DNA of 64,000 bases from a virus. Under the pieces are notes generated by a model. The model saw only the letters and a program-made list of their open reading frames with translations. It was not told the origin of the DNA and made no database searches. This document shows positions 4,773 through 64,000 of the stretch, piece after piece (the stretch's first letter is position 1; the number at the start of each line of letters is the position of its first letter). The stretch lies in the IMG/VR virus record IMGVR_UViG_3300022745_000018, positions 1-64,000 of that record; one strand, 5' to 3'. The translations under genes and the position numbers were made by a program.

Positions 4773-4978
4773 TTTAGATTCTCCAACTCAACAAAATGTT
4801 TACCATCAGGACCGCACGAACCGGACACTCTCTGAACGGAGCAATGCAGTAGATACTTCTTTCCAGTTACAAGATCGGTCTCAAGATGAGTACAAAGATA
4901 ATGCTCGCCCTGAAGTTTCACTAGAAGTGGGTATTCACTAGGATTGCAGCAATTGACGCAGTTGACACAGAGCTTCAC
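4769..4978 (-). CDS. Cys-rich hypothetical protein
   Basis: CVNC...C...C...CGPDGK pattern; overlapping start and stop codons. Confidence 0.55.
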   Translation of the reverse strand: MKLCVNCVNCCNPSEYPLLVKLQGEHYLCTHLETDLVTGKKYLLHCSVQRVSGSCGPDGKHFVELENLK

Positions 4979-5187
4979 GTTTTGACCTTTGGTGCCGGTG
5001 CTGTCATTTGTTTAGAACCTGGTGTGCTCAACCAGATTTCGCCTGTAGGATCGACTTCGGCTTGCATCTTCCAAAGATCAGCCAGTTTGGCTTTGGCTCG
5101 ATTGCGAGTATGACTGTCGTCTGACATCTCAAATGTCCAATCGAAATTCGCAAGAGCGGTTTTGTATCGTTTAAGTATTTCGTTCAT
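4975..5187 (-). CDS. hypothetical protein (probably leaderless)
   Basis: ATG starts 6 nt after the -10 box of promoter 5194-5220. Confidence 0.6.
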   Translation of the reverse strand: MNEILKRYKTALANFDWTFEMSDDSHTRNRAKAKLADLWKMQAEVDPTGEIWLSTPGSKQMTAPAPKVKT

Positions 5188-5193
5188 GATTGA

Positions 5194-5220
5194 ATTGTAT
5201 TCACCCAACGATCATGTAGT
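5194..5220 (-). promoter_or_regulatory. ACTACATG-N13-TACAAT promoter
   Basis: Motif copy with 13-bp spacer. Confidence 0.65.
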
Positions 5221-5544
5221 CGAATACGGACCGTCTATATCACGCTTCAGTGTTTCGCGATAGAACTCAATCATCTTTAGATCGACTAAACCAAGTGTCT
5301 CTCGGACTATCTGATCTGTTGGTAAATCTCTAATGACACGATCGTAGAGTACATCATGCAATGAAGTTCCCGGTTTGCGATTTAGGAAGATTTTGTTTCA
5401 AAGGTATGGGTTCTCTCTCTTGCTGGTTCTACCTTAGCACCGAAACCACAGATACCGATATTATCTTCACTGATGCGCTCGTCTGAAACACCTAGCCTAT
5501 ACGCATCGGCACATACTTGAGACAAGATTGCGCGAATCCCTAAA

Positions 5545-5991
5545 TCAGACATCACTCTTCCCTCTCCCAATCTCTGCTGCGGCTCTAACGATTGCGCGGC
5601 GTTTGGCGGCAGCAATATCAGAACCAATGGGCTCATGCCACATCGTTCGAATTCCGTTCCGAATTCTAGCGCTCACATAACCTTTCTCCGGAACTTCCAT
5701 GGTATAGATATTCAACTCTTTCGCTAGATGATTTGCACACAAATCATTCTCTAAAGGATTCCAATAGAAATTACCAACAGATTTGTGTTGATATTCGCCG
5801 TTGCCTATTAGTAGATACCCAAGAGCCAACGCCGCGAGATCTGTTAGTTCTCCATCAGATGTCTGATCATCTAGTTTTGAATAGTCGCCGACGTTAGTAT
5901 CACCAAACCACACAACCAGTTCGCACTCCATATACCCTCCCGGGCAACTAACGAATCCACTTTCGTTTGGCTTAGTCATTTTGTATTCCAT
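5545..5991 (-). CDS. hypothetical phage protein
   Basis: Contains WNPLxN and C-terminal RRAIVRAAAEIG, a pattern common in phage small proteins. Confidence 0.6.
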   Translation of the reverse strand: MEYKMTKPNESGFVSCPGGYMECELVVWFGDTNVGDYSKLDDQTSDGELTDLAALALGYLLIGNGEYQHKSVGNFYWNPLENDLCANHLAKELNIYTMEVPEKGYVSARIRNGIRTMWHEPIGSDIAAAKRRAIVRAAAEIGRGKSDV

Positions 5992-24188: not shown

Positions 24189-25731
24189 GAATGGGAGGTT
24201 GATTTGTGTCAATCTCTTCAGGTGGTGGAGCTTCTGCATCAATTTGCTTATTGATTTCTTCAAGTTCGTCATCCGTTAAACGCAGGACTTTTCGTTGAAT
24301 GTATTCTCTTGAAAGATATTTACCAACGAACGCATCGGCCTGGGCGACGGTTTGTAGACGGTCCTTCAGCAAATCGCTGTTCTTTAATTCTGCCCAGAAG
24401 TTGTCGGATGCATAAATGAACTTGATACCTGGCTTGAGGTTATCCCAATCTTCAGGTGAAGTAATTCCCTTGAGAATTAACTGCGTCTTCAAGATGTCTA
24501 ACAGAAGAACATTGAATCTACGACGAATGCCTTCAACGAACTTCGCGAACTTGATTTCGTCTCTAGTGATCTCGGATTGTCTACCCAAAGCAAATGCACC
24601 TTGTTGGGGCTGCAGTCTGCCAATAGGAATATTCAGAGACATGTAAAGTTTGTTCTGGAAATATTCAGTGTTCTCGATCGAACCTAGACCTTGGCCACCC
24701 TGTAGGACGTCGATTGTGGTACCTTTTCCGTTAGCACCACGTGGGAACCAATAGTCTTCAACAATCGCAGTGAACTTCTTGTCTGTTTTCACCACACCAG
24801 AAGCAGCATCATAGACAACTTTATTCTTGTAGCGGTCCATTGTCTGCTGAATATGCTGCTCAGCTTTCGATCTAGTCAATCCAGACGTATCGATGTTGAA
24901 AACTCTACGCTCAGGGGCACGAGTCATTCTGTAGATGACATCAGAATCCTCCATCATCCTCAATTGATTGAGTGGACGTATGGCCTTATAGAGATAACCA
25001 ATTGTGCGATTCAGGTTCCTATCTACATACCCGCATGTAGAATATGCAATTGAATCTGGACTAATCTTCAGACCAGTCGTTTCATTAACTTGAGAATATC
25101 CAGCAGATGCTTTGATCTGCTCGGCATAGACGAAATATTCCTGTTGGCCAGTGATAAGCGTAGCACCAGTTTGATTATCTACAGATTTAGATACCTCAAC
25201 TACCTTCTTGAGTTTAGCGACATCGATCGGTCGAAGCTGGATGATGCCGTCCTTCGGCTTCTTCTCATCAACAATCTTATGATATGCTTTTGCGCCATCA
25301 ACATAGAAGTCGCGAACGATCTCTAGACCGTTTACATCAAATCCCATCAACTTGACAACATTCCTAAACTCAGCGGTAATCAAGTTCTTCGTCTTATCAG
25401 ATAAGCTCTTTGCCAAATCTGGGTGAAAATCAATCTTCAATAGATCGTCTTCAGAATCCGCTGAGACAATTTCATTCACAACCTCGGAGACGGCGATGTC
25501 GATTTCAGACACCAAACTGATCTCTCGATATTTAGAGATGAGGTCTGCGTTTTCGGTGATCGCTGATGGATCTAAATTAACGGAATAGGAATAGAAGCCG
25601 TTAGTTGTTACTTCAGCTGGTGCTGAATCAGATTTTTCTGGTACAAACGACTTTACTTGTGGTTGCTCGGCTCTAGCAATTGTAAAGCCAAATAGCTTGA
25701 AGCCGCTGCTTGTTTGATCTGGAGTTTGCAT
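24184..25731 (-). CDS. 20: portal vertex protein (gp20)
   Basis: YLYKAIRPLNQLRMMED..IYRMTRAPERRVF, EDYWFPR, EITRDEIKF. Confidence 0.97.
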   Translation of the reverse strand: MQTPDQTSSGFKLFGFTIARAEQPQVKSFVPEKSDSAPAEVTTNGFYSYSVNLDPSAITENADLISKYREISLVSEIDIAVSEVVNEIVSADSEDDLLKIDFHPDLAKSLSDKTKNLITAEFRNVVKLMGFDVNGLEIVRDFYVDGAKAYHKIVDEKKPKDGIIQLRPIDVAKLKKVVEVSKSVDNQTGATLITGQQEYFVYAEQIKASAGYSQVNETTGLKISPDSIAYSTCGYVDRNLNRTIGYLYKAIRPLNQLRMMEDSDVIYRMTRAPERRVFNIDTSGLTRSKAEQHIQQTMDRYKNKVVYDAASGVVKTDKKFTAIVEDYWFPRGANGKGTTIDVLQGGQGLGSIENTEYFQNKLYMSLNIPIGRLQPQQGAFALGRQSEITRDEIKFAKFVEGIRRRFNVLLLDILKTQLILKGITSPEDWDNLKPGIKFIYASDNFWAELKNSDLLKDRLQTVAQADAFVGKYLSREYIQRKVLRLTDDELEEINKQIDAEAPPPEEIDTNQPPIQ

Positions 25732-25744
25732 TATTAACGATTCA

Positions 25745-25786
25745 GAAAATAGGCTATAGAAGCATAGCCGCTATAGCCTATTTATT
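25745..25786 (-). terminator. 13-bp hairpin terminator after gp19, overlapping a late-promoter-like AATAAATA
   Basis: AAATAGGCTATAG...CTATAGCCTATTT perfect inverted repeat. Confidence 0.65.
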
Positions 25787-25800
25787 GAGTCAGAGACGAA

Positions 25801-26358
25801 TCAAGAATCTGTTGTCTGGAAGTTCGTGACTGTAGATTCGGTAGTCCAATAATCCAACGACAGTTCAACAGAGAATTCTTCAACTGCCCCTGCATTACCG
25901 AAGTCCAGTCCAATAGAAGACACTGCTTGAGGCCAAACGTCATTGAACTTATAGACCTTCACGATGTTATCGTTTCTGTCCAGTTGGAACACTCTTGCGC
26001 TTGCCACCAAATTACCTGGTGTTAGAATACCGTTAGTACTAGCATGACCAACGATAGCGTTACTCCAAGTTTCGAAAGCATTACGCAAAGTCATCTGATT
26101 GTCATTGATGACTTGGATGTTCCAATTCTCAAAAACACGGTCACCAGGCAACTTTGCATTGCGGCCTCTGAATGGTACTTCCAAAGGTTGAATGATGCTG
26201 CTTGGTAGAGAAGCTGCTTTGATCAAGAATGGGGCTTTGAATGCAGCTAGTACACCCTCAGCACCAGCGATCGTTGGGAAGTTAATTTCAACTCTGAACT
26301 GGGATGGTCTTGCTCCACCTCCAGTTAGATTTGCACGAAAATCATCGATGCGAGCCAT
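25801..26358 (-). CDS. 19: tail tube protein (gp19)
   Basis: GGARPSQF, PFRGR..KLPGDR.F, WP..VS motifs. Confidence 0.95.
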   Translation of the reverse strand: MARIDDFRANLTGGGARPSQFRVEINFPTIAGAEGVLAAFKAPFLIKAASLPSSIIQPLEVPFRGRNAKLPGDRVFENWNIQVINDNQMTLRNAFETWSNAIVGHASTNGILTPGNLVASARVFQLDRNDNIVKVYKFNDVWPQAVSSIGLDFGNAGAVEEFSVELSLDYWTTESTVTNFQTTDS

Positions 26359-56214: not shown

Positions 56215-57879
56215 ATGAACAGAACTAACCAAATCAACGAAGCCTTCAAGAAACTTCGTTTCGAACCAAGAAACAACCAAGTCGATATCGTCAACAGAAT
56301 CATCCATGAATTTGTAGATCAGAATAAACGAAACGTGATTCTATGTGCAGATACTGGAATCGGTAAGTCAATTATTGCAGCAGTTACTGCAGAAGTTCTA
56401 TCAACAGAGATTCCTTCTGATGCCAAGAAGGGTATTTATGTCAGTTCGACGAACTCGTTGGTTGATCAGTATGCGAATACGTTCAAGGATGAGCCGATAA
56501 GTGATTGGCATCGTATCAAAGGTGCTTCCAATTATCCATGTGTCTACTTCAGAGAAAAAGGAAATCTGCAGTCAACTGGTGAAGACTGCGTCATTAAAGA
56601 CATTACAGAACAAGAACGTCAGAAGTTCTGCAGTAACTGTACTTATAAGTCAGCGAAAGCAGCGATCTATACGACACAGAACCTCATCACCAATTATTCA
56701 TACTTCATGGTGGGAAACGTCACAACGCATCATTTGCGCAACACAGCTCGTAGATTACACGTCTTCGACGAAGCTCATTTGCTAAACGATCAGTTCTGCG
56801 AACAGTTCTCCATTCACATTTCAGTCGAAACTCTGAACCGTTACATCGCCGAACTGAAAAATCAGAACGGTAAAATGAATTCTTATGCAGATACTCTAAC
56901 AGAAATGAGAGATCGTATTGCTGCGAAGCAGATCAAAGAAACTAACTATGTGAAGTTTATTTCGGAACTTCGAGATCAGTTCATCGGAATACATTCGAAA
57001 ATGATGTGGTTATCTTCCATGATTCCGGATTTGATGGTACGAAAGAAGATGCAGAAAGCAGCATCCAAGTACGATAAGATGGGGTGTAGGATGAAAGCGT
57101 TCTTCAATCCAGGATATGAACATGTGTTTGAAGATAAGAATCCTAACGAAATCACCATCAAACCAATCTTCGTATCTGATTCCATCTCAGATCTTTTGGG
57201 AGAAAAGAATCTCTTCATGACCGCGACGATGTCGATGGCCTATGCCAAGGATACGATGTCTCTACCAGCGAAGGACACGGCTTACATCGATGCAGGTACT
57301 GTATTTTCTCCACAGAATAGACCATTGTTCTTTTTGGGTAAGCGGAATCTGAATTACACGACGATGCAGAATGAAGATACTTTCACGCGATTGAGCGAAC
57401 TGACGAATGCGATCATCTCTCATCATAAAAATGAGAAAGGCATCATGCTGACTCCGTCGTTCTCAGCGACCGAGAAGCTGTGTAGGAATCTGAAAGGGAC
57501 GAAGGTGTTCGAACACAAGTCAGGCACGAAAGTATCCGAGATCATTGATCAGTTCAAATCATATAAGGGTTCAGCGATTCTCATTAGCCCTAGCATCTTT
57601 GAAGGCCTTGATTTCAAAGATGACCATTCGAGGTATCAGATTATCATGAAGACGCCATACCCAAGTCTTGGTGATAAACGGATGAAATACATCTGTGATG
57701 TCTACGGTCATGTCTATAGAGAAATCGGTTTGTATAAGATCATCCAAGGTGTAGGAAGATCAATTCGTTCAGAAACAGACACAGCAACTACATACTTTTT
57801 AGACAAATCGTCCCAGACACTGTTCGAATCAGATCAGAATCTGTGGGCCGATAGATTCGATGTCAAGGTGACCGCATGA
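56215..57879 (+). CDS. DinG/XPD-family SF2 helicase
   Basis: TGIGKS, four Cys suggesting an Fe-S site, DEAH, EGLDF, Q..GRSIR. Confidence 0.88.
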   Translation: MNRTNQINEAFKKLRFEPRNNQVDIVNRIIHEFVDQNKRNVILCADTGIGKSIIAAVTAEVLSTEIPSDAKKGIYVSSTNSLVDQYANTFKDEPISDWHRIKGASNYPCVYFREKGNLQSTGEDCVIKDITEQERQKFCSNCTYKSAKAAIYTTQNLITNYSYFMVGNVTTHHLRNTARRLHVFDEAHLLNDQFCEQFSIHISVETLNRYIAELKNQNGKMNSYADTLTEMRDRIAAKQIKETNYVKFISELRDQFIGIHSKMMWLSSMIPDLMVRKKMQKAASKYDKMGCRMKAFFNPGYEHVFEDKNPNEITIKPIFVSDSISDLLGEKNLFMTATMSMAYAKDTMSLPAKDTAYIDAGTVFSPQNRPLFFLGKRNLNYTTMQNEDTFTRLSELTNAIISHHKNEKGIMLTPSFSATEKLCRNLKGTKVFEHKSGTKVSEIIDQFKSYKGSAILISPSIFEGLDFKDDHSRYQIIMKTPYPSLGDKRMKYICDVYGHVYREIGLYKIIQGVGRSIRSETDTATTYFLDKSSQTLFESDQNLWADRFDVKVTA

Positions 57880-58562
57880 ACTTTCTAGATGGGCCATTCA
57901 CTAAAGGTGATGTAGAGATTCAAGAAGTGAATCTTGATAGGGATGATTCTGGTCCCTATCGCATTTACATTGACGAAGAAGGAAACAAATATGAGTCAGT
58001 GACATCGTTCATTGGTCGCTCAGATCCTTCTAAAGAAGCCAGTCTCCAAGCTTGGAAGAATGCAGTTGGGTTGGAAGAGGCTAATGCGATATCAGAAGCA
58101 GCAGCAACAAAGGGTACTGCAGTCCACCTTGCATGCGAACAGTACATCGCTGGGTTGCGATGGCAGGACATCTCGATGTTCTGCAAAGCAGACTTTCTAT
58201 CAATCAAGAAACTCTTGGATGCAAAACTGTCTAAAGTAATTGGATCTGAGTTGCGGATGTACTCGAAACGTCTTAAGCTGGCTGGTACGACGGACTTGCT
58301 GGCTTCCTGGGACAATGAGATCTCAATCATTGACTTCAAAACATCTGGTAGAATCAAGTACAAAGATGAGATTGATGGGTACTTTCTTCAGATGGCTGCG
58401 TATGCTGCAATGGCATACGAGATGTATGGGATTCGAGTCAAGCATTTAGTCGTTATCATGGCGGTAGATGGTGACCCCAATGCATATGAATACGCCGAGA
58501 CAGTCGGTTATTGGCTGAACAAATTGATAGAGCTTAGAAGGACATATCCAGCTCTCCAGTAA
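57876..58562 (+). CDS. PD-(D/E)xK exonuclease
   Basis: SVT, GT.VH...E, AGTTD, IIDFKT, Q.AAY. Confidence 0.85.
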   Translation: MNFLDGPFTKGDVEIQEVNLDRDDSGPYRIYIDEEGNKYESVTSFIGRSDPSKEASLQAWKNAVGLEEANAISEAAATKGTAVHLACEQYIAGLRWQDISMFCKADFLSIKKLLDAKLSKVIGSELRMYSKRLKLAGTTDLLASWDNEISIIDFKTSGRIKYKDEIDGYFLQMAAYAAMAYEMYGIRVKHLVVIMAVDGDPNAYEYAETVGYWLNKLIELRRTYPALQ

Positions 58563-58592
58563 CTATCGCGATGCTGTCGGTTAAATATATGC

Positions 58593-58865
58593 ATGACAGC
58601 AGTAACAAGATTGGGTGATTTATGCTCTGGTCACGGAGTTTGTTCACCTAGACCATCAACGTCTGGTTCTCCAGACGTCTTTGCGAATTCAAAACCAGTA
58701 CACAGACAACATGATCTGTGGGGACAGCACTGTCTACATACATCTGAACTTTCTGGTGGTTCGTCTACTGTTTTCGTTAATAGCCGTCCACTTGGACGTG
58801 TGGGTGATACTATAGCATGCGGGTCAACCGTCGCGAACGGTTCGCCAAATGTGTTCTCAGGGTAG
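58593..58865 (+). CDS. PAAR-repeat baseplate spike tip (gp5.4-like)
   Basis: RLGD.CSGH, GSPDVF.N, GRVGD...CG...GSPNVF. Confidence 0.9.
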   Translation: MTAVTRLGDLCSGHGVCSPRPSTSGSPDVFANSKPVHRQHDLWGQHCLHTSELSGGSSTVFVNSRPLGRVGDTIACGSTVANGSPNVFSG

Positions 58866-58868
58866 TAG

Positions 58869-59543
58869 ATGAAAAGAAACGAACTGGCTGAAGGTATCCA
58901 ACATTACCTAGGCAATCCTTTATTAAAAGCCGCTAGACAGCCGCTCCAATTTACCATGGAGCAAGCTAAGGAATATGCTAAGTGCGCCCGTGATCCGGTC
59001 TACTTCATTGAGAACTATGTAAGGATCGTTTCGCTGGACGAAGGTCTTGTTCTATTCAAGATGTATCCGTATCAGAAACGAATGATTCGTGCGATGCACC
59101 ATGGTCGAAAGGTCGTGGGTAAGATCTTTAGACAGGCTGGTAAATCCGCGATCTGCGCTGCATACATTTCTTGGTATATCACGTTCAATGGACACAAGAC
59201 AGCGGCCATCTTAGCAAACAAAGCATCGATTGCTAGGGAGATCTTCAGTAGGATTCAAGTCATTCTCGAGAACCTTCCTTTTTGGTTGCAGCAAGGTGTC
59301 TTGGAATGGAACAAGACATCGTTGGAATTAGAGAACGGTTCCAAGTGCTTTTGTGCAGCAAGTTCGCCTTCTTCTGTTAGGGGTAAGTCGATCAATCTAC
59401 TTTTTTGCGTCGCTGGTGAGACAAAAGTTCATCTTCGAAATAAACTAACTGGCGAAATTGTTGAAGTACCTATATCTGACTTGAAGGGTTTGCTTAGAAG
59501 AGAGGAGGAAGATGATGAAGGATTTTCAATTTCCCTCAATTAA
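58869..59543 (+). CDS. 17: terminase large subunit fragment 1 (N-extein, 179 aa) plus split intein-1 N-fragment (59406-59540)
   Basis: YLGNP.LK, DPVYF, RQAGKS Walker A, SVRG.S; followed by CVAGETKV intein block A and a stop. Confidence 0.92.
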   Translation: MKRNELAEGIQHYLGNPLLKAARQPLQFTMEQAKEYAKCARDPVYFIENYVRIVSLDEGLVLFKMYPYQKRMIRAMHHGRKVVGKIFRQAGKSAICAAYISWYITFNGHKTAAILANKASIAREIFSRIQVILENLPFWLQQGVLEWNKTSLELENGSKCFCAASSPSSVRGKSINLLFCVAGETKVHLRNKLTGEIVEVPISDLKGLLRREEEDDEGFSISLN

Positions 59544-60735
59544 AGAAACTGACGATTATCTAAGATTCATAGAAGAATGTATAGAACCAAACGAACATTG
59601 TGAAAAACATCACATATATCCAAAATCGATATTTGGTGACAATTCCTTCATAAAGAAGCTGTCATATAAAGATCACTTCTTTGCTCATTATTTGTTGGTT
59701 AAGCTATATGAAGCCGCTGGGATGAAATCTGAATACTTGAAGATGTCAAAAGCATTCTTTTCTTTCATTCGCTGCAATGAATATCGGTTATCTGAAATAT
59801 CATCGTATTCGGATGATGACATCACTGTGTTAGGGTGTCTATTTGAGGAAGCGAAAATTGAAAACTCTAAATCTTCAAACGGCGAAAACAATCCTTTTTA
59901 TGGTAAATCCCATTCGCCGGAAACTATTGAGAAAATACTGAATACAAAGAAGACACGTAATTCAATGAAATTTTGGACAAATGAGAAGAAAAAACGTCTA
60001 AGCGAAGTCCTCAAATCTCTACAAAATAAAAAGGTCATTTGGGTCACGAATGTTGAGACTAGAGAGAATCGTAGAGTATCTGAAAACGATCTTAACAACA
60101 TTTCAGATGAATGGGTTCTTGGTAGATATACATCAGATGAAGAGCGTCTGCACAGATCATACTCAGCCAAGGAATCCTCACATAATCTAACTTACGAATG
60201 GGTTCGCCGTGGAGATGAGCATGAATGGAGTGGCACCAAACACATAAAGTCGCTAGAGACTGGTGAAAATAGACGTCTAAAGATCAGTGATGAAATACCC
60301 AGTGGGTTTGTGTTAGGGCTCAATTTTTCGCAGTCTCATTTGGATAATCTTAGAATGGCGGCAAGTAAACGTAGAGGTAGACCACAACCTCACGTAATTG
60401 AGATCAATAAAAATCCATCCAAGATAAAGAAGACAGCTGATAAAAATCGCGGCACTACTCGCACAGAAAGTCAGAAATTAAAAATGAGTCTTGGGAGAAG
60501 AAAGTTTATCGCGAACGGGGGCAAAGCTTCGACTGCTGGTACGAAAAGATTGTTCAACAAATTATCTAAGAAGTTCGTATATGTACCTGCGAATGAAGTC
60601 TCCAATTCAATGAAAGAGAATTTGAATCTAACTGATGAAGCAGTAAGATTGGCGACGAACATGAATGGTGATAGATTGTATGTCTGTCAAACGGAAACAT
60701 TACCCAATGGATTTGAATATGTTCTTAGAAAATAA
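59512..60735 (+). mobile_element. free-standing HNH homing endonuclease (NUMOD3-type DNA-binding repeats) between the intein-1 halves
   Basis: EKHHIYPKS...H..AHYLL; GENNPFYGKSHS.ET; AT-rich; overlaps both flanking ORFs in another frame. Confidence 0.85.
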
Positions 60736-61411
60736 TGAATGGGAAGTTTTGACGGATGAAGGGTGGTCCGATTTTTCGGCTCTGAAGATAGGTCGGGGTG
60801 CATTCGTATCAATATCTTTCTCCAATCAAGAAAGCATAAGAGTCACCGCCGATCATTTGTTGATGACGGCTGATGGGTGGGTTGCTGCAAAAAACATCAA
60901 TGTTGGTGATAATGTAAAGTCCATAGATGGCTTCATCGATGTCATTTCAATAAATGATGGTGGCGAAGGTGAGACTTTCGATTTAGTCGGTGTAAAGAAG
61001 AATTCTAGGTATTTTACGAATGATGTTCTGTCACATAATTGCGACGAATTTGCCCACTTGGCTCCAAAATTAGCAGAAGAGTTTATTGCATCGGTTTTCC
61101 CGACGATCTCGTCGTCAATGGAATCGAAGCTGATTATCGTATCCACGCCAAAGGGTATGAATCAGTTTTACAAACTGTGGGTAGATGCTGAGAATGGGAA
61201 GAATGGCTTCATAACGGTTGAGGGTAAGTGGAGAGAACATCCCAAGAGAAACCAGAAATGGGCGGATGAGCAATTAGCAATTCTCGGGCCCGTCAAGTAC
61301 AAGCAAGAAGTGGAATGTCTTTGGGGAAAATCCAAAATAACATTAAGAGATGTTGTGACAGGGGAAATCTTGAATGTGTCTTTAGAAGAAGCATATGATC
61401 TAATTTGTTAA
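60707..61411 (+). CDS. 17: split intein-1 C-fragment plus terminase middle extein (61040-61315, 92 aa) plus split intein-2 N-fragment (61316-61408)
   Basis: VTADH block B, SHN|CDEFAH junction, IVSTPKGMNQFY, KQEVE|CLWGKSKI junction; start at 60707 or 60719. Confidence 0.92.
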   Translation: MDLNMFLENNEWEVLTDEGWSDFSALKIGRGAFVSISFSNQESIRVTADHLLMTADGWVAAKNINVGDNVKSIDGFIDVISINDGGEGETFDLVGVKKNSRYFTNDVLSHNCDEFAHLAPKLAEEFIASVFPTISSSMESKLIIVSTPKGMNQFYKLWVDAENGKNGFITVEGKWREHPKRNQKWADEQLAILGPVKYKQEVECLWGKSKITLRDVVTGEILNVSLEEAYDLIC

Positions 61412-61430
61412 ATACAAACAAAAAGATCAT

Positions 61431-62448
61431 ATGAGAGAACATACTTACATTGGAAATTTGCTTCGTAGTAGATATATTATAGTCGATGAATCGTATCTAA
61501 ATGAATATGTTGATTTGTGTTTATCAAAGGCTCTACCAACAAAGATTAGATTTGAAACGGAATGCCACCACATTCTACCTAAATGCAATAGGGCATTTCC
61601 TGAATTTAGAAAAGCAAAGTGGAATTTAGTTCACTTACGATTCGCTGATCACGTTCACGCTCACTATTTGTTGTATAAAGCAACACGTGCTGCAGAATTT
61701 GCCGCGGCGATGGTGTTTACTCTTGGCAATAGTTGCGCGTTTCCAAGAACTGATGCTGAATTGCTGGATATATTACCGATCATTGAGAAAATATGAATAC
61801 TCGCTATTCATGAATAGCGAGAGAAACCCTAACATTGGCTCAAAACGTTCGCTAGAGACCAAATTGAAAATGTCCATTGCACAAAAGGGTGTCAAGAGAG
61901 AATATGTAAAACGTATTTGGGTTCATAACTACATCGAAGATAAGATGGTGCAGGATGTTGAATTAAACGATTACATAAATGCTGGTTGGCAATTTGGCCG
62001 CACCGAAGCAACAAGAATGAAACTAGCAGACAGTAAATTAGGGACAAAGGACTCGGATGAGACTAGAATTAGAAAAAGTTTGGCGCAAAGCAAATATGCA
62101 AATTCCAGCGGTTCACACTTAAAGACATCTGAGTTTAGAGAATACCGCCGTAACATGTTCATTAAAAATAACCCATCATCATCTATGGAGGCGAGAGATA
62201 AAATTTCTGCTCGGATGAGAAAGCGCTGGGGTAATGATGATTATAGATCAAAAATGAGTGAAATGTTCTCTAACATAAACACGGGAAGTAAATTTTTCTA
62301 TAACATAGAAACAAAGGAATTTCGTAGATTTAAGCTAACAGACGAAATTCCACCAGGATTTCAAGATGCAACAGGTAAAACGCATTGGGTTAAAGATCAA
62401 AACGGAAAACGATTGAAAGTCATCGATGAAACGAAATTCACGGTTTGA
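61431..62448 (+). mobile_element. second HNH homing endonuclease between the intein-2 halves, with a +1 frameshift near 61790
   Basis: ECHHILPK...NLV.L...DH..AHYLL in 61431..61796; NUMOD3-like RSLETKLKMS and DSDETRIRKS in the next frame. Confidence 0.8.
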
Positions 62449-63562
62449 AATTCATGGCCCGCGTGGTTGGTGCAAGTTCGATGGGATTCGAAGAAAGAAG
62501 TCTTCGTCTTTATTAAAAATAGTTTTTGAAGATGGGGCACCATTAGTGTGCACTCGTGATCACCGATTCTTTATTGATGGCAAATTCATACAAGCCGCTA
62601 AAGTGCAAACCGGTAAGGAGATGAACGGGCGTGTTGTTCATGAAGTCGTGCCCATTGATGAATCGATGAGCGTCTACGACCCGGTTAACGTCGCTGATGG
62701 CAATGCGTATATTGCGGATTGTGTTGTTAACCACAATTGCAGTTTCGTCGGTTCGTCGAAGACACTGATTGATGGTGACAAGATTGCTCAGATCCCATTC
62801 ATTGAACCTTTACATGAAACGACCGACAACTTGAAGATGTATGAGGCGTCAATCCAAGGTCATTCGTATGTCTGTGCGGTTGACGTCTCTAGAGGTCAAC
62901 ACTTAGATAGTTCAGCGTTCATTATCTATGATGTGACGGTGATGCCATATAAGATCGTTGCTACGTTCAAGAATAATACGATATCCACACTGACTTACCC
63001 GTTCATGATCATCAATACATGTAAAGCATACAACGATGCCTACTGTCTGGTTGAGATCAATGATGCTGGTGGTGAAGTCGCCAATTCCATCTTCTACGAT
63101 AGTGAATATGCCAATGTCTATTGGACTCATAAGGACGACTTGGTAGAAGGTCTTGGATACCCTGGAGTTCGTTCCACGAAACGTGTAAAGGGCGTCGGTT
63201 GTTCAGTCTTGAAAGAATTGGTGGAACAGAACCAATTGATCGTGAATTCATATGACATCATCAATGAAATGAACAACTTCATTGCCAAGGGTGCATCGTA
63301 TGCAGCCGACGATACTCAGATCAATGATGACTTGATGACGTGTCTTTGGTTATTTGCGTGGCTGACAAAGCAACCGATGTTTGCTGACATCACCAATACG
63401 AACATCAGAGCAGTTCTGAATAGAAAGTATGAGGATTCTATTCTGGAAAGTCTGATTCCGTTTGGATACATTACTGATGGGACGGAAGAAAGTGCAGATC
63501 CAGTGACACACTTGGATCAGATGCGAACACCTGACCCAATGAAAGATTGGTTGTTAGGGTAA
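62426..63562 (+). CDS. 17: split intein-2 C-fragment (62426-62737, 104 aa) plus terminase C-extein / nuclease domain (274 aa)
   Basis: CTRDH block B, NHN|CSFVGSS.TLI junction, VDVSRG...DSSAF, VEIND, DDLMT. Confidence 0.92.
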   Translation: MKRNSRFEIHGPRGWCKFDGIRRKKSSSLLKIVFEDGAPLVCTRDHRFFIDGKFIQAAKVQTGKEMNGRVVHEVVPIDESMSVYDPVNVADGNAYIADCVVNHNCSFVGSSKTLIDGDKIAQIPFIEPLHETTDNLKMYEASIQGHSYVCAVDVSRGQHLDSSAFIIYDVTVMPYKIVATFKNNTISTLTYPFMIINTCKAYNDAYCLVEINDAGGEVANSIFYDSEYANVYWTHKDDLVEGLGYPGVRSTKRVKGVGCSVLKELVEQNQLIVNSYDIINEMNNFIAKGASYAADDTQINDDLMTCLWLFAWLTKQPMFADITNTNIRAVLNRKYEDSILESLIPFGYITDGTEESADPVTHLDQMRTPDPMKDWLLG

Positions 63563-63580
63563 CGAGTACCCTAACTTGGT

Positions 63581-64000
63581 TTAGGCTGTAGTTTCTTCAG
63601 CCATCAATGCAGCCAGTTCGGCCTGCAACTCATCGATGGTTTTGGTACCCAGCGATTCATTGCGTTTGGTTTCGATCAATTCCATGATCTTCTGTGCAGA
63701 AGCATTGCGATGGGCACGACGTTCAGCAGTGACTTTCTCGGCTTTCTTGATCTCGATGATCTCTTTCAAGACATCAAGAGCGATAGCCGATTCACGGTCA
63801 ACTTTCGTCGGTTCACCAGTGACGAACGAAGGAACCTCAGCGTCTTTGCGCTTCTTGAAGATTTCCATTGCAATGGAATCCAAACTGACACGACCACCTG
63901 AAGCAGTCAACGGCAGATCAAACAGATCTTCAACGGTCAAGATGCCTTTGGTTGTCGCAAAGCGAAGTTTCAAACGGGCTGCTTGCAAAAATACATTCAT
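63581..64000 (-). CDS. conserved hypothetical phage protein
   Basis: F.QA.RLKLRF...KG.L.VEDL.DLPL N-terminus and coiled-coil C-terminus. Confidence 0.7.
   Translation of the reverse strand: MNVFLQAARLKLRFATTKGILTVEDLFDLPLTASGGRVSLDSIAMEIFKKRKDAEVPSFVTGEPTKVDRESAIALDVLKEIIEIKKAEKVTAERRAHRNASAQKIMELIETKRNESLGTKTIDELQAELAALMAEETTA

Follow-up and report, generated by a model that had tools for sequence, protein, structure and literature searches.

A large terminase gene in three pieces, and two atypically split inteins predicted to rejoin them, in an uncultured T4-like phage

A gene for a large terminase (TerL) of the gp17 type was found to be present in three pieces in an uncultured T4-like phage (virus record IMGVR_UViG_3300022745_000018; 171,909 bases, estimated to be 99% complete), of which positions 1-64,000, referred to below as the window, were analyzed. 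The locus extends from position 58869 to position 63562 on the + strand and consists of six open reading frames (ORFs): the three terminase pieces, TerL-A, TerL-B, and TerL-C, and the endonuclease ORFs lying between them (Table 1). TerL-A ends with the N-terminal part of an intein (IntN1), TerL-B begins with a C-terminal intein part (IntC1) and ends with a second N-terminal part (IntN2), and TerL-C begins with IntC2. Every IntN is closed by a stop codon and every IntC is opened by an ATG. With the ORFs cut at the motifs given in Table 1, the exteins measure 179, 92, and 274 amino acids (aa), that is 545 aa in all. A preliminary description of this DNA had proposed these three ORFs and their lengths, which were matched to the residue when the ORFs were cut at the motifs it named; it had also joined the exteins into a product of 545 aa with the junctions LLF-CDE and QEVE-CSF, and in uninterrupted homologs the same exteins do abut without any gap.

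Comparisons with the Pfam and PHROGs families assigned Terminase_6N to pieces A and B, Terminase_6C to piece C, and Intein_splicing/Hint to both IntC parts, while the ORFs in both gaps matched HNH/NUMOD3 homing-endonuclease families. In the whole genome, only one Terminase_6N locus was identified, and the Hint matches were confined to IntC1 and IntC2. Since this is the sole TerL ATPase locus in a genome that is 99% complete, the gene should be essential. No match to the locus was obtained by megablast among the deposited phages. The homing endonuclease gene in the first gap (HEG1) overlaps IntN1 by 32 nucleotides (nt) and IntC1 by 17 nt; the one in the second gap (HEG2) begins 19 nt past IntN2, and its last ORF overlaps the start of IntC2 by 23 nt.

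Table 1. Positions in the window of the terminase pieces, intein parts, endonuclease ORFs, and palindrome.
Feature	Position	Strand	Description	Evidence
TerL-A	58869-59543	+	N-extein, IntN1, and stop	
N-extein	58869-59405	+	179 aa; Walker A (RQAGKS) and Walker B beta-strand to INLLF; ends SINLLF	Terminase_6N, E=2.2e-6; phrog_5989, E=7e-57
IntN1	59406-59543	+	45 aa and stop; starts CVAGETKV; core CVAGETKVHLRNKLTGEIVEVPISDLKGLL, then acidic tail	52% identity to the N-terminal 27 aa of the L004 mini-intein
HEG1	59512-60735	+	407 aa; free-standing HNH and NUMOD3 homing endonuclease	NUMOD3, E=3.8e-8; HNH_4, E=0.0036; phrog_655, E=8e-16
TerL-B	from ATG 60719; stop at 61409-61411	+	IntC1, middle extein, and IntN2 (IntC1 of 111 aa if ATG 60707)	
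IntC1	60719-61039	+	107 aa; block B TADH; ends SHN; alternative starts 60707 and 60665	Intein_splicing, E=6e-7
Middle extein	61040-61315	+	92 aa; CDEFAH...KQEVE; Cys+1, then Walker B Asp-Glu; C-motif region VSTPKG	phrog_2, E=1e-14
IntN2	61316-61411	+	31 aa and stop; starts CLWGKSKI; CLWGKSKITLRDVVTGEILNVSLEEAYDLIC	Aligns with the site-2 IntN of L006 and of Serratia phage 92A1
HEG2, HNH module	61431-61796	+	Separate ORF of 121 aa; stop 61794-61796	phrog_12434, E=1.4e-17; HNH motif aligns with that of HEG1
Palindrome	61800-61821		Perfect, 22 nt, CTCGCTATTCATGAATAGCGAG; encloses the ATG of the second HEG2 ORF	Direct sequence reading
HEG2, NUMOD3/DNA-binding module	61810-62448	+	212 aa from ATG 61810; other frame	NUMOD3, E=0.0039
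TerL-C	62426-63562	+	IntC2 and C-extein	
IntC2	62426-62737	+	104 aa; block B TRDH; ends NHN	CatC 6dsl_B, E=1.9e-9, residues 6-103
C-extein	62738-63562	+	274 aa and stop; Cys+1 in CSFVGSS; RNaseH-like nuclease domain	Terminase_6C, E=2.6e-9

All the features of a gp17-type large terminase are present in the three exteins and in colinear order: the Walker A motif, the Walker B motif with its catalytic Glu, the C-motif, and the RNaseH-like nuclease domain. An alignment with T4 gp17, as suggested in the preliminary description, was obtained by way of an intein-less homolog of 544 aa (L010), as compared with the 545 aa predicted for the spliced product, which matches the T4 gp17 structures (3ezk/3cpe) with E=1.5e-98 and in the alignment of which the chain index corresponds to the T4 numbering (SRQLGKT at 161-167), and the colinearity was borne out. 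The first insertion site (site 1; Y253/I254 of T4 gp17, the slash marking the insertion point) lies inside the Walker B strand, leaving the strand on fragment A and Asp255 and the catalytic Glu256 on fragment B, while the second (site 2; T353/A354) lies where the ATPase domain ends, immediately ahead of its connection to the nuclease domain, that is at the ATPase-nuclease hinge. The preliminary description regarded site 2 as equivalent to that of the AceL-TerL intein. The middle extein is colinear with residues 254-353 of T4 gp17, and its C-motif region reads VSTPKG, as compared with TTTPNG in T4. Since site 1 cuts the Walker B strand off from Asp-Glu and site 2 parts the ATPase and the nuclease, no single fragment is expected to be a working motor, and none of them is predicted to be able to act alone as an ATPase. 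The end of the N-extein directly adjoins the middle extein in the intein-less homologs, and the C-extein is 54-61% identical to the C part of the uninterrupted homologs; the gap-free abutting of the three exteins in these proteins is far beyond what chance could produce.

The catalytic set of class 1 inteins is complete in both interrupting elements: it includes Cys1, the TxxH of block B, the terminal His-Asn, and Cys+1. Cys1 is kept in all seven of the aligned relatives and in 19 or more of the 23 middle pieces compared, and the block B His, the terminal His and Asn, and the Cys at +1 are invariant in our alignment A2; the catalytic residues are also retained in divergent middle pieces showing 50% identity or less. 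Among the inteins with solved structures, IntC1 matches VidaL (6vgv, E=6.3e-5) and CatC (6dsl, E=0.0076), and IntC2 matches CatC, which derives from an engineered consensus intein of the atypically split type, along almost all of its length (E=1.9e-9). Identities of 44-49% were also found between IntC1 and the corresponding part of the contiguous inteins of two relatives (L004 and L036), and IntC2 is 33-37% identical to the site-2 IntC of L036 and L006. When IntN1 and IntC1, on the one hand, and IntN2 and IntC2, on the other, were joined for alignment, they were found to be colinear with the contiguous inteins, differing from them only by the tails at the break.

The Hint fold was assessed on the contiguous site-1 allele of L004, which is 52% identical to IntN1 and 44% identical to IntC1. 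The predicted structure of this intein, modelled with an alignment of these sequences, showed a mean predicted local distance difference test (pLDDT) score of 95.3; its best match in the PDB was VidaL (TM 0.87/0.82, E=1e-10), and all the other top matches were inteins. The break in the window falls in loop 29-34 of this model, past the strands at 7-12 and 18-22 and the helix at 23-28. It therefore lies between blocks A and B, leaving block B in the IntC parts, which is the atypical split site and differs from the canonical site of endonuclease insertion. The sizes of the parts (45/107 and 31/104 aa) fit the atypical type, which combines an IntN of only about 15-45 aa with an IntC of at least about 100 aa. 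Both inteins thus belong to the atypically split Cat/VidaL family.

The alleles present in viral and metagenome relatives differ in the state of the two sites. In the loci L009-L020 and L043-L049, there is no intein and the three exteins abut without a gap at both junctions. A single contiguous mini-intein, with no endonuclease gene, lies exactly at site 1 (LLM/CVDGSTEI...SHN/CDEFAH) in L004, L005, L038, and L039. Site 1 is split by an ortholog of HEG1 and site 2 is empty in L037, other endonuclease genes occupy the gap at the split site 1 in L007 and L040-L042, and site 2 alone is split in L006 and in Serratia phage 92A1. The closest relative, L036, the exteins of which are 58-75% identical, carries both inteins in contiguous form in a single ORF of 809 aa, at exactly the two codons interrupted in the window. 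The nearest relatives of the intein parts are 44-59% identical at the protein level, and their synonymous sites are likely to be saturated. This allelic series is the strongest evidence that both elements are inteins. In another viral contig (L008, 132 kb), an in-frame insert of about 786 nt (4950-5737) was observed at residue 93 of the N-extein, in the Walker A region, which is probably a contiguous intein at a third insertion site.

Taken together, these data make it highly probable that a single gp17-type TerL is made here as three polypeptides, A, B, and C, which would be rejoined by two different split inteins into a protein of 545 aa. According to this scheme, two different class-1 inteins interrupt the gene, each of which is broken in the loop following its first two strands and helix, each break being occupied by a free-standing HNH-NUMOD3 homing endonuclease gene. 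IntN1, carried by A, would dock to IntC1, carried by B, and IntN2, carried by B, would dock to IntC2, carried by C. In each of the rebuilt Hint domains, the formation of a thioester at Cys1 would be followed by trans-thioesterification to Cys+1, cyclisation of the Asn, and an S-to-N shift, and the product would be one TerL of 545 aa with the junctions LLF-CDEFAH and QEVE-CSFVGSS. The arrangement likely originated from an L036-like gene with two inteins, invaded twice by endonuclease genes. The double trans-splicing put forward in the preliminary description has thus been upheld in all its predictions at the sequence level, namely the two catalytic sets, the kinship with Cat and VidaL, the contiguous alleles of L004 and L036, and the fact that neither a second terminase nor an intron was detected.

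Several points weigh against this scheme. While the anatomy of the locus, the intein family membership, the allelic series, and the recurrence in other phages are shown by the sequences, the two splicing reactions, their order and yield, and the absence of cross-reaction between the pairs are inferred from them. The scores of the isolated IntC parts with the Pfam Hint/Intein families are under the curated cut-offs, as is to be expected since these domains are without their first strands. The cores of the two IntN parts have about 11 of 30 residues in common, as counted by eye, which bears on the orthogonality of the pairs. The scans of viral contigs seeded with two middle pieces (P0096 and P0143) yielded 82 loci, none of which is a three-piece one. 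Lastly, TerL-B and TerL-C show no obvious Shine-Dalgarno sequence; they start 17 and 23 nt, respectively, before the stop of the preceding endonuclease ORF. The fact that they lack this sequence and overlap the end of the preceding ORF suggests that their translation may be coupled to that of the endonuclease genes.

Any cross-reaction between the two pairs would come at a high cost. A reaction between IntN1 and IntC2 would delete the middle extein, and one between IntC1 and IntN2 on the same chain would cyclise it. IntC1 and IntC2 show only 23% identity. In a tree of 195 IntC sequences, the label of the insertion site requires 11 changes, as compared with a mean of 61 when the labels are shuffled; IntC1 belongs to a clade consisting entirely of Walker-B inteins, and the rows nearest to IntC2 are all site-2 inteins. 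The tree is both short and poorly resolved, so that it supports the existence of different site-specific lineages and no particular history. Since the pairs belong to different site-specific lineages, their orthogonality is plausible.

Split terminases were also found in cultured phages. In Escherichia phage kaaroe (Krischvirus, RB49-like, MN850574; L057 2239-5353) and its relatives, TerL is split just after the Walker B motif: IntN is fused in frame, without a stop, to a TnsA-like/endonuclease-I-like domain in an ORF of 585 aa, and the next ORF starts with IntC. This phage would be a convenient laboratory model for a terminase split at Walker B. In Serratia phage 92A1, site 2 is split by a SegE-like gene. 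The TerL of Campylobacter phage CP21 (HE815464; L056 3100-7407) contains three inteins, one of which is split: the first is contiguous and lies at Walker A, the second, immediately ahead of Walker B, is divided by a T5orf172 gene, and the third is contiguous and lies right after Asp-Glu, the last two being separated by eight extein residues (CNIIVVDE). The C piece of CP21 is partly unannotated in the record. In Campylobacter phage Los1 (KX879627), the terminase pieces at 20-607 on the - strand (L031) and 24983-26311 on the + strand (L002) are separated by 24 kb and have opposite orientations; the N piece, which is located right at the beginning of the record, ends with IFIDE/CVAGDTKITVRNKKTG, and the C piece opens with an IntC ending in SHN/CAFIDKW. 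Viable phages can thus have a single split at either kind of site. Among the deposited phages, none with two IntC modules or two split sites was found at the sensitivity of BLAST, which makes a weak test, since it reported only one place in CP21, where there are three inteins.

Three other explanations for the locus were considered. The one that survives best, which we nevertheless regard as improbable, is that the intein halves might serve only as docking domains, the fragments assembling non-covalently into a working terminase without any ligation. Instances of phage genes in several pieces whose products function unligated are on record (Friedrich, 2007; Crona, 2011), and atypical IntN and IntC parts bind each other in any case; the NrdA of Aeromonas phage Aeh1, which is split by an endonuclease gene, reportedly assembles without peptide ligation. 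However, the fact that Cys1, TxxH, HN, and Cys+1 are kept in both inteins as well as in divergent middle pieces is hard to explain if catalysis is dispensable, and without splicing a Hint domain of roughly 150 residues would remain just one residue upstream of the catalytic Asp-Glu pair of Walker B.

It might also be suggested that the endonuclease genes are each contained in a self-splicing RNA intron, the removal of which would rejoin the intein halves at the RNA level and give one precursor with two cis-splicing inteins. T4-like phages do carry group I introns with endonuclease ORFs, and the terminase of Campylobacter phage IBB_35 has been described as being of the RNA-intron type (PMC3322345), which counts in favor of this possibility. 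However, a permissive Rfam scan of positions 58000-64000 detected no intron family at E<=1, the only match being a chance-level PyrG leader (E=0.63), and between the ORFs there are either overlaps (of 32, 17, and 23 nt) or a spacing of 19 nt, which leaves no non-coding room for an intron core. In addition, in Los1, where the pieces carry homologous intein halves, their distance and their opposite orientations leave joining at the protein level as the only option. On the strength of the Rfam scan and the lack of non-coding room, this explanation was rejected as very improbable. That the gene is decaying or mis-assembled, belonging to a defective phage or containing stops that result from sequencing, so that no functional protein is made, is scarcely credible and was rejected too: the genome was assembled from a metagenome and HEG2 is itself interrupted, but the terminase is the only one in this nearly complete genome, each of the three exteins is undamaged and colinear with gp17, both stops are followed by a complete endonuclease ORF typical of its family, and other, independent contigs as well as 32 protein clusters show the same layout.

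The layout of this locus is not unique. A profile built on four middle pieces (alignment A1) was compared with 1.84 billion cluster representatives and gave 7155 matches; the best 150 of these, together with five matches from an earlier search, were classified using hidden Markov models (HMMs) based on our own alignments, which amounts to 154 non-self representatives. Middle pieces of the form IntC-extein-IntN account for 32 of these 154 top representatives. They begin with Met and an IntC and end 30-40 residues past a Cys1, a tail length too regular for their ends to be due to truncation. The first break lies around Walker B in 22 of them and at Walker A in the other 10, several of which carry an additional contiguous intein. 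Among the remainder, C pieces number 60 and N pieces 10, while 23 sequences represent whole genes containing between one and three contiguous inteins and another 29 are partial or unclassified. Around Walker B, the position of the first insertion is variable: the Cys is found at -1, -4, or -6 relative to the Asp, or immediately follows Asp-Glu. The ten of these clusters that were looked up are all metagenomic, with either no name or that of "hypothetical protein". It is an evenly balanced question whether obligate natural three-fragment ligation is a common route to the packaging motor in uncultured T4-like phages, proceeding by way of two co-resident, mutually orthogonal, atypically split inteins, with the middle piece being neither cyclised nor skipped.

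At least four nuclease families have been found in the same intein loop across the relatives. A GAGGAGG sequence occurs upstream of the ATG of HEG1; this ribosome-binding region codes for the acidic tail of IntN1 (RREEEDDE), which overlaps the start of HEG1 (59480-59520). In L037, the corresponding gap holds a full-length ortholog of HEG1, with 43% identity over 408 aa, and residues 282-368 of HEG1 are 39-46% identical to parts of different endonuclease genes located in the same intein gap (L007 2265-2477 and L040 1411-1593), which would fit the idea of a common DNA-recognition module borne by differing nuclease heads. HEG2 is split over two ORFs in different frames, a detail missing from the preliminary description; the second of these ORFs and HEG1 have the element ET.E.RR.K..DEIP.GF in common. 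No match to this DNA-binding ORF was obtained by tblastn among the deposited phages. HEG2 may represent an endonuclease undergoing decay, an enzyme made of two chains, or a gene whose start is regulated by a hairpin.

Immediately upstream of TerL (56215-58865), genes for a helicase (phrog_2488), an exonuclease (phrog_298), and a PAAR-motif protein (phrog_281) were identified; in contrast to T4, the gene for the small terminase subunit does not adjoin TerL. The late-promoter motif of T4, TATAAATA, does not occur at all in the 64-kb window, where 1.75 occurrences would be expected by chance. The late promoters of this phage probably have another sequence, and the absence of the T4 motif from the whole window gives no information on the expression of the terminase pieces.

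The elements of which this locus is composed are known from other systems. The fractured genes described by Dassa, London, Stoddard, Schueler-Furman, and Pietrokovski (2009; PMC2677866) include one gp17-like terminase locus with an IntC of 122 residues. The likeness extends to the split intein, the free-standing endonuclease gene between its halves, the use of a single strand, the large terminase of myovirus type, and the unusual split point leaving a long IntC. However, those genes have one break each, endonucleases that are GIY-YIG or Vsr-like, and spacers of 27-51 nt, whereas here there are two breaks and three polypeptides, the endonucleases belong to the HNH-NUMOD3 type, and the ORFs overlap or are separated by 19 nt. 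The fractured-gene layout, consisting of an N-part with IntN, an endonuclease gene, and an IntC with the C-part on one strand, is thus present twice in one gene. AceL-TerL (Thiel et al., 2014), Cat (PDB 6DSL), and VidaL (PDB 6VGV) likewise have a short IntN, an IntC of about 100 aa, and class-1 chemistry with Cys1 and Cys+1, but they were characterised as single pairs, whereas two diverged pairs stand side by side here on one middle fragment. The viable phages CP21, IBB_35 (PMC3322345), Los1, kaaroe, and 92A1 likewise have homologous inteins at or near the Walker B and hinge sites, with endonuclease genes in the split; in contrast to the present locus, with its two split inteins and three pieces, each of these has one split intein and two pieces.

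Atypically split inteins are in use as engineering tools (PMC10189870, PMC11185735), and tandem trans-splicing of three segments with orthogonal split inteins has been engineered (PMC12707363, PMC11168065, PMC11185735). The engineered systems resemble the present locus in having a middle fragment of the form IntC-cargo-IntN and two pairs that must not cross-react; they differ from it in being man-made, whereas the arrangement described here is a natural one and affects an enzyme essential to the phage. In the open full-text literature, to which this provisional result is confined, no account was found of a natural gene that is interrupted by two split inteins. To this extent, the view taken in the preliminary description that no such three-piece terminase was known holds good, while the abundance of middle pieces among the top representatives shows that the arrangement is not a one-off. 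The locus appears to combine known elements in a way that has not been described.

The main limit of engineered three-segment tandem trans-splicing is that of finding intein pairs that do not cross-react. The present locus suggests that nature has solved this problem in an essential enzyme, and the more than 30 diverged metagenomic middle pieces suggest that it has done so many times. Natural pairs with a short, peptide-sized IntN are candidates for the protein-engineering toolbox and, if the scheme proposed here is true, would provide ready-made orthogonal pairs. The series leading from the empty site to the contiguous mini-intein, to one split, and then to both splits provides an unusually complete record of the origin of split inteins. 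As regards the biology of phages, the locus, in which the motor is interrupted within its Walker B strand and at the hinge between its domains, shows to what extent an essential gene can be broken up by selfish endonuclease genes in a phage that remains viable.

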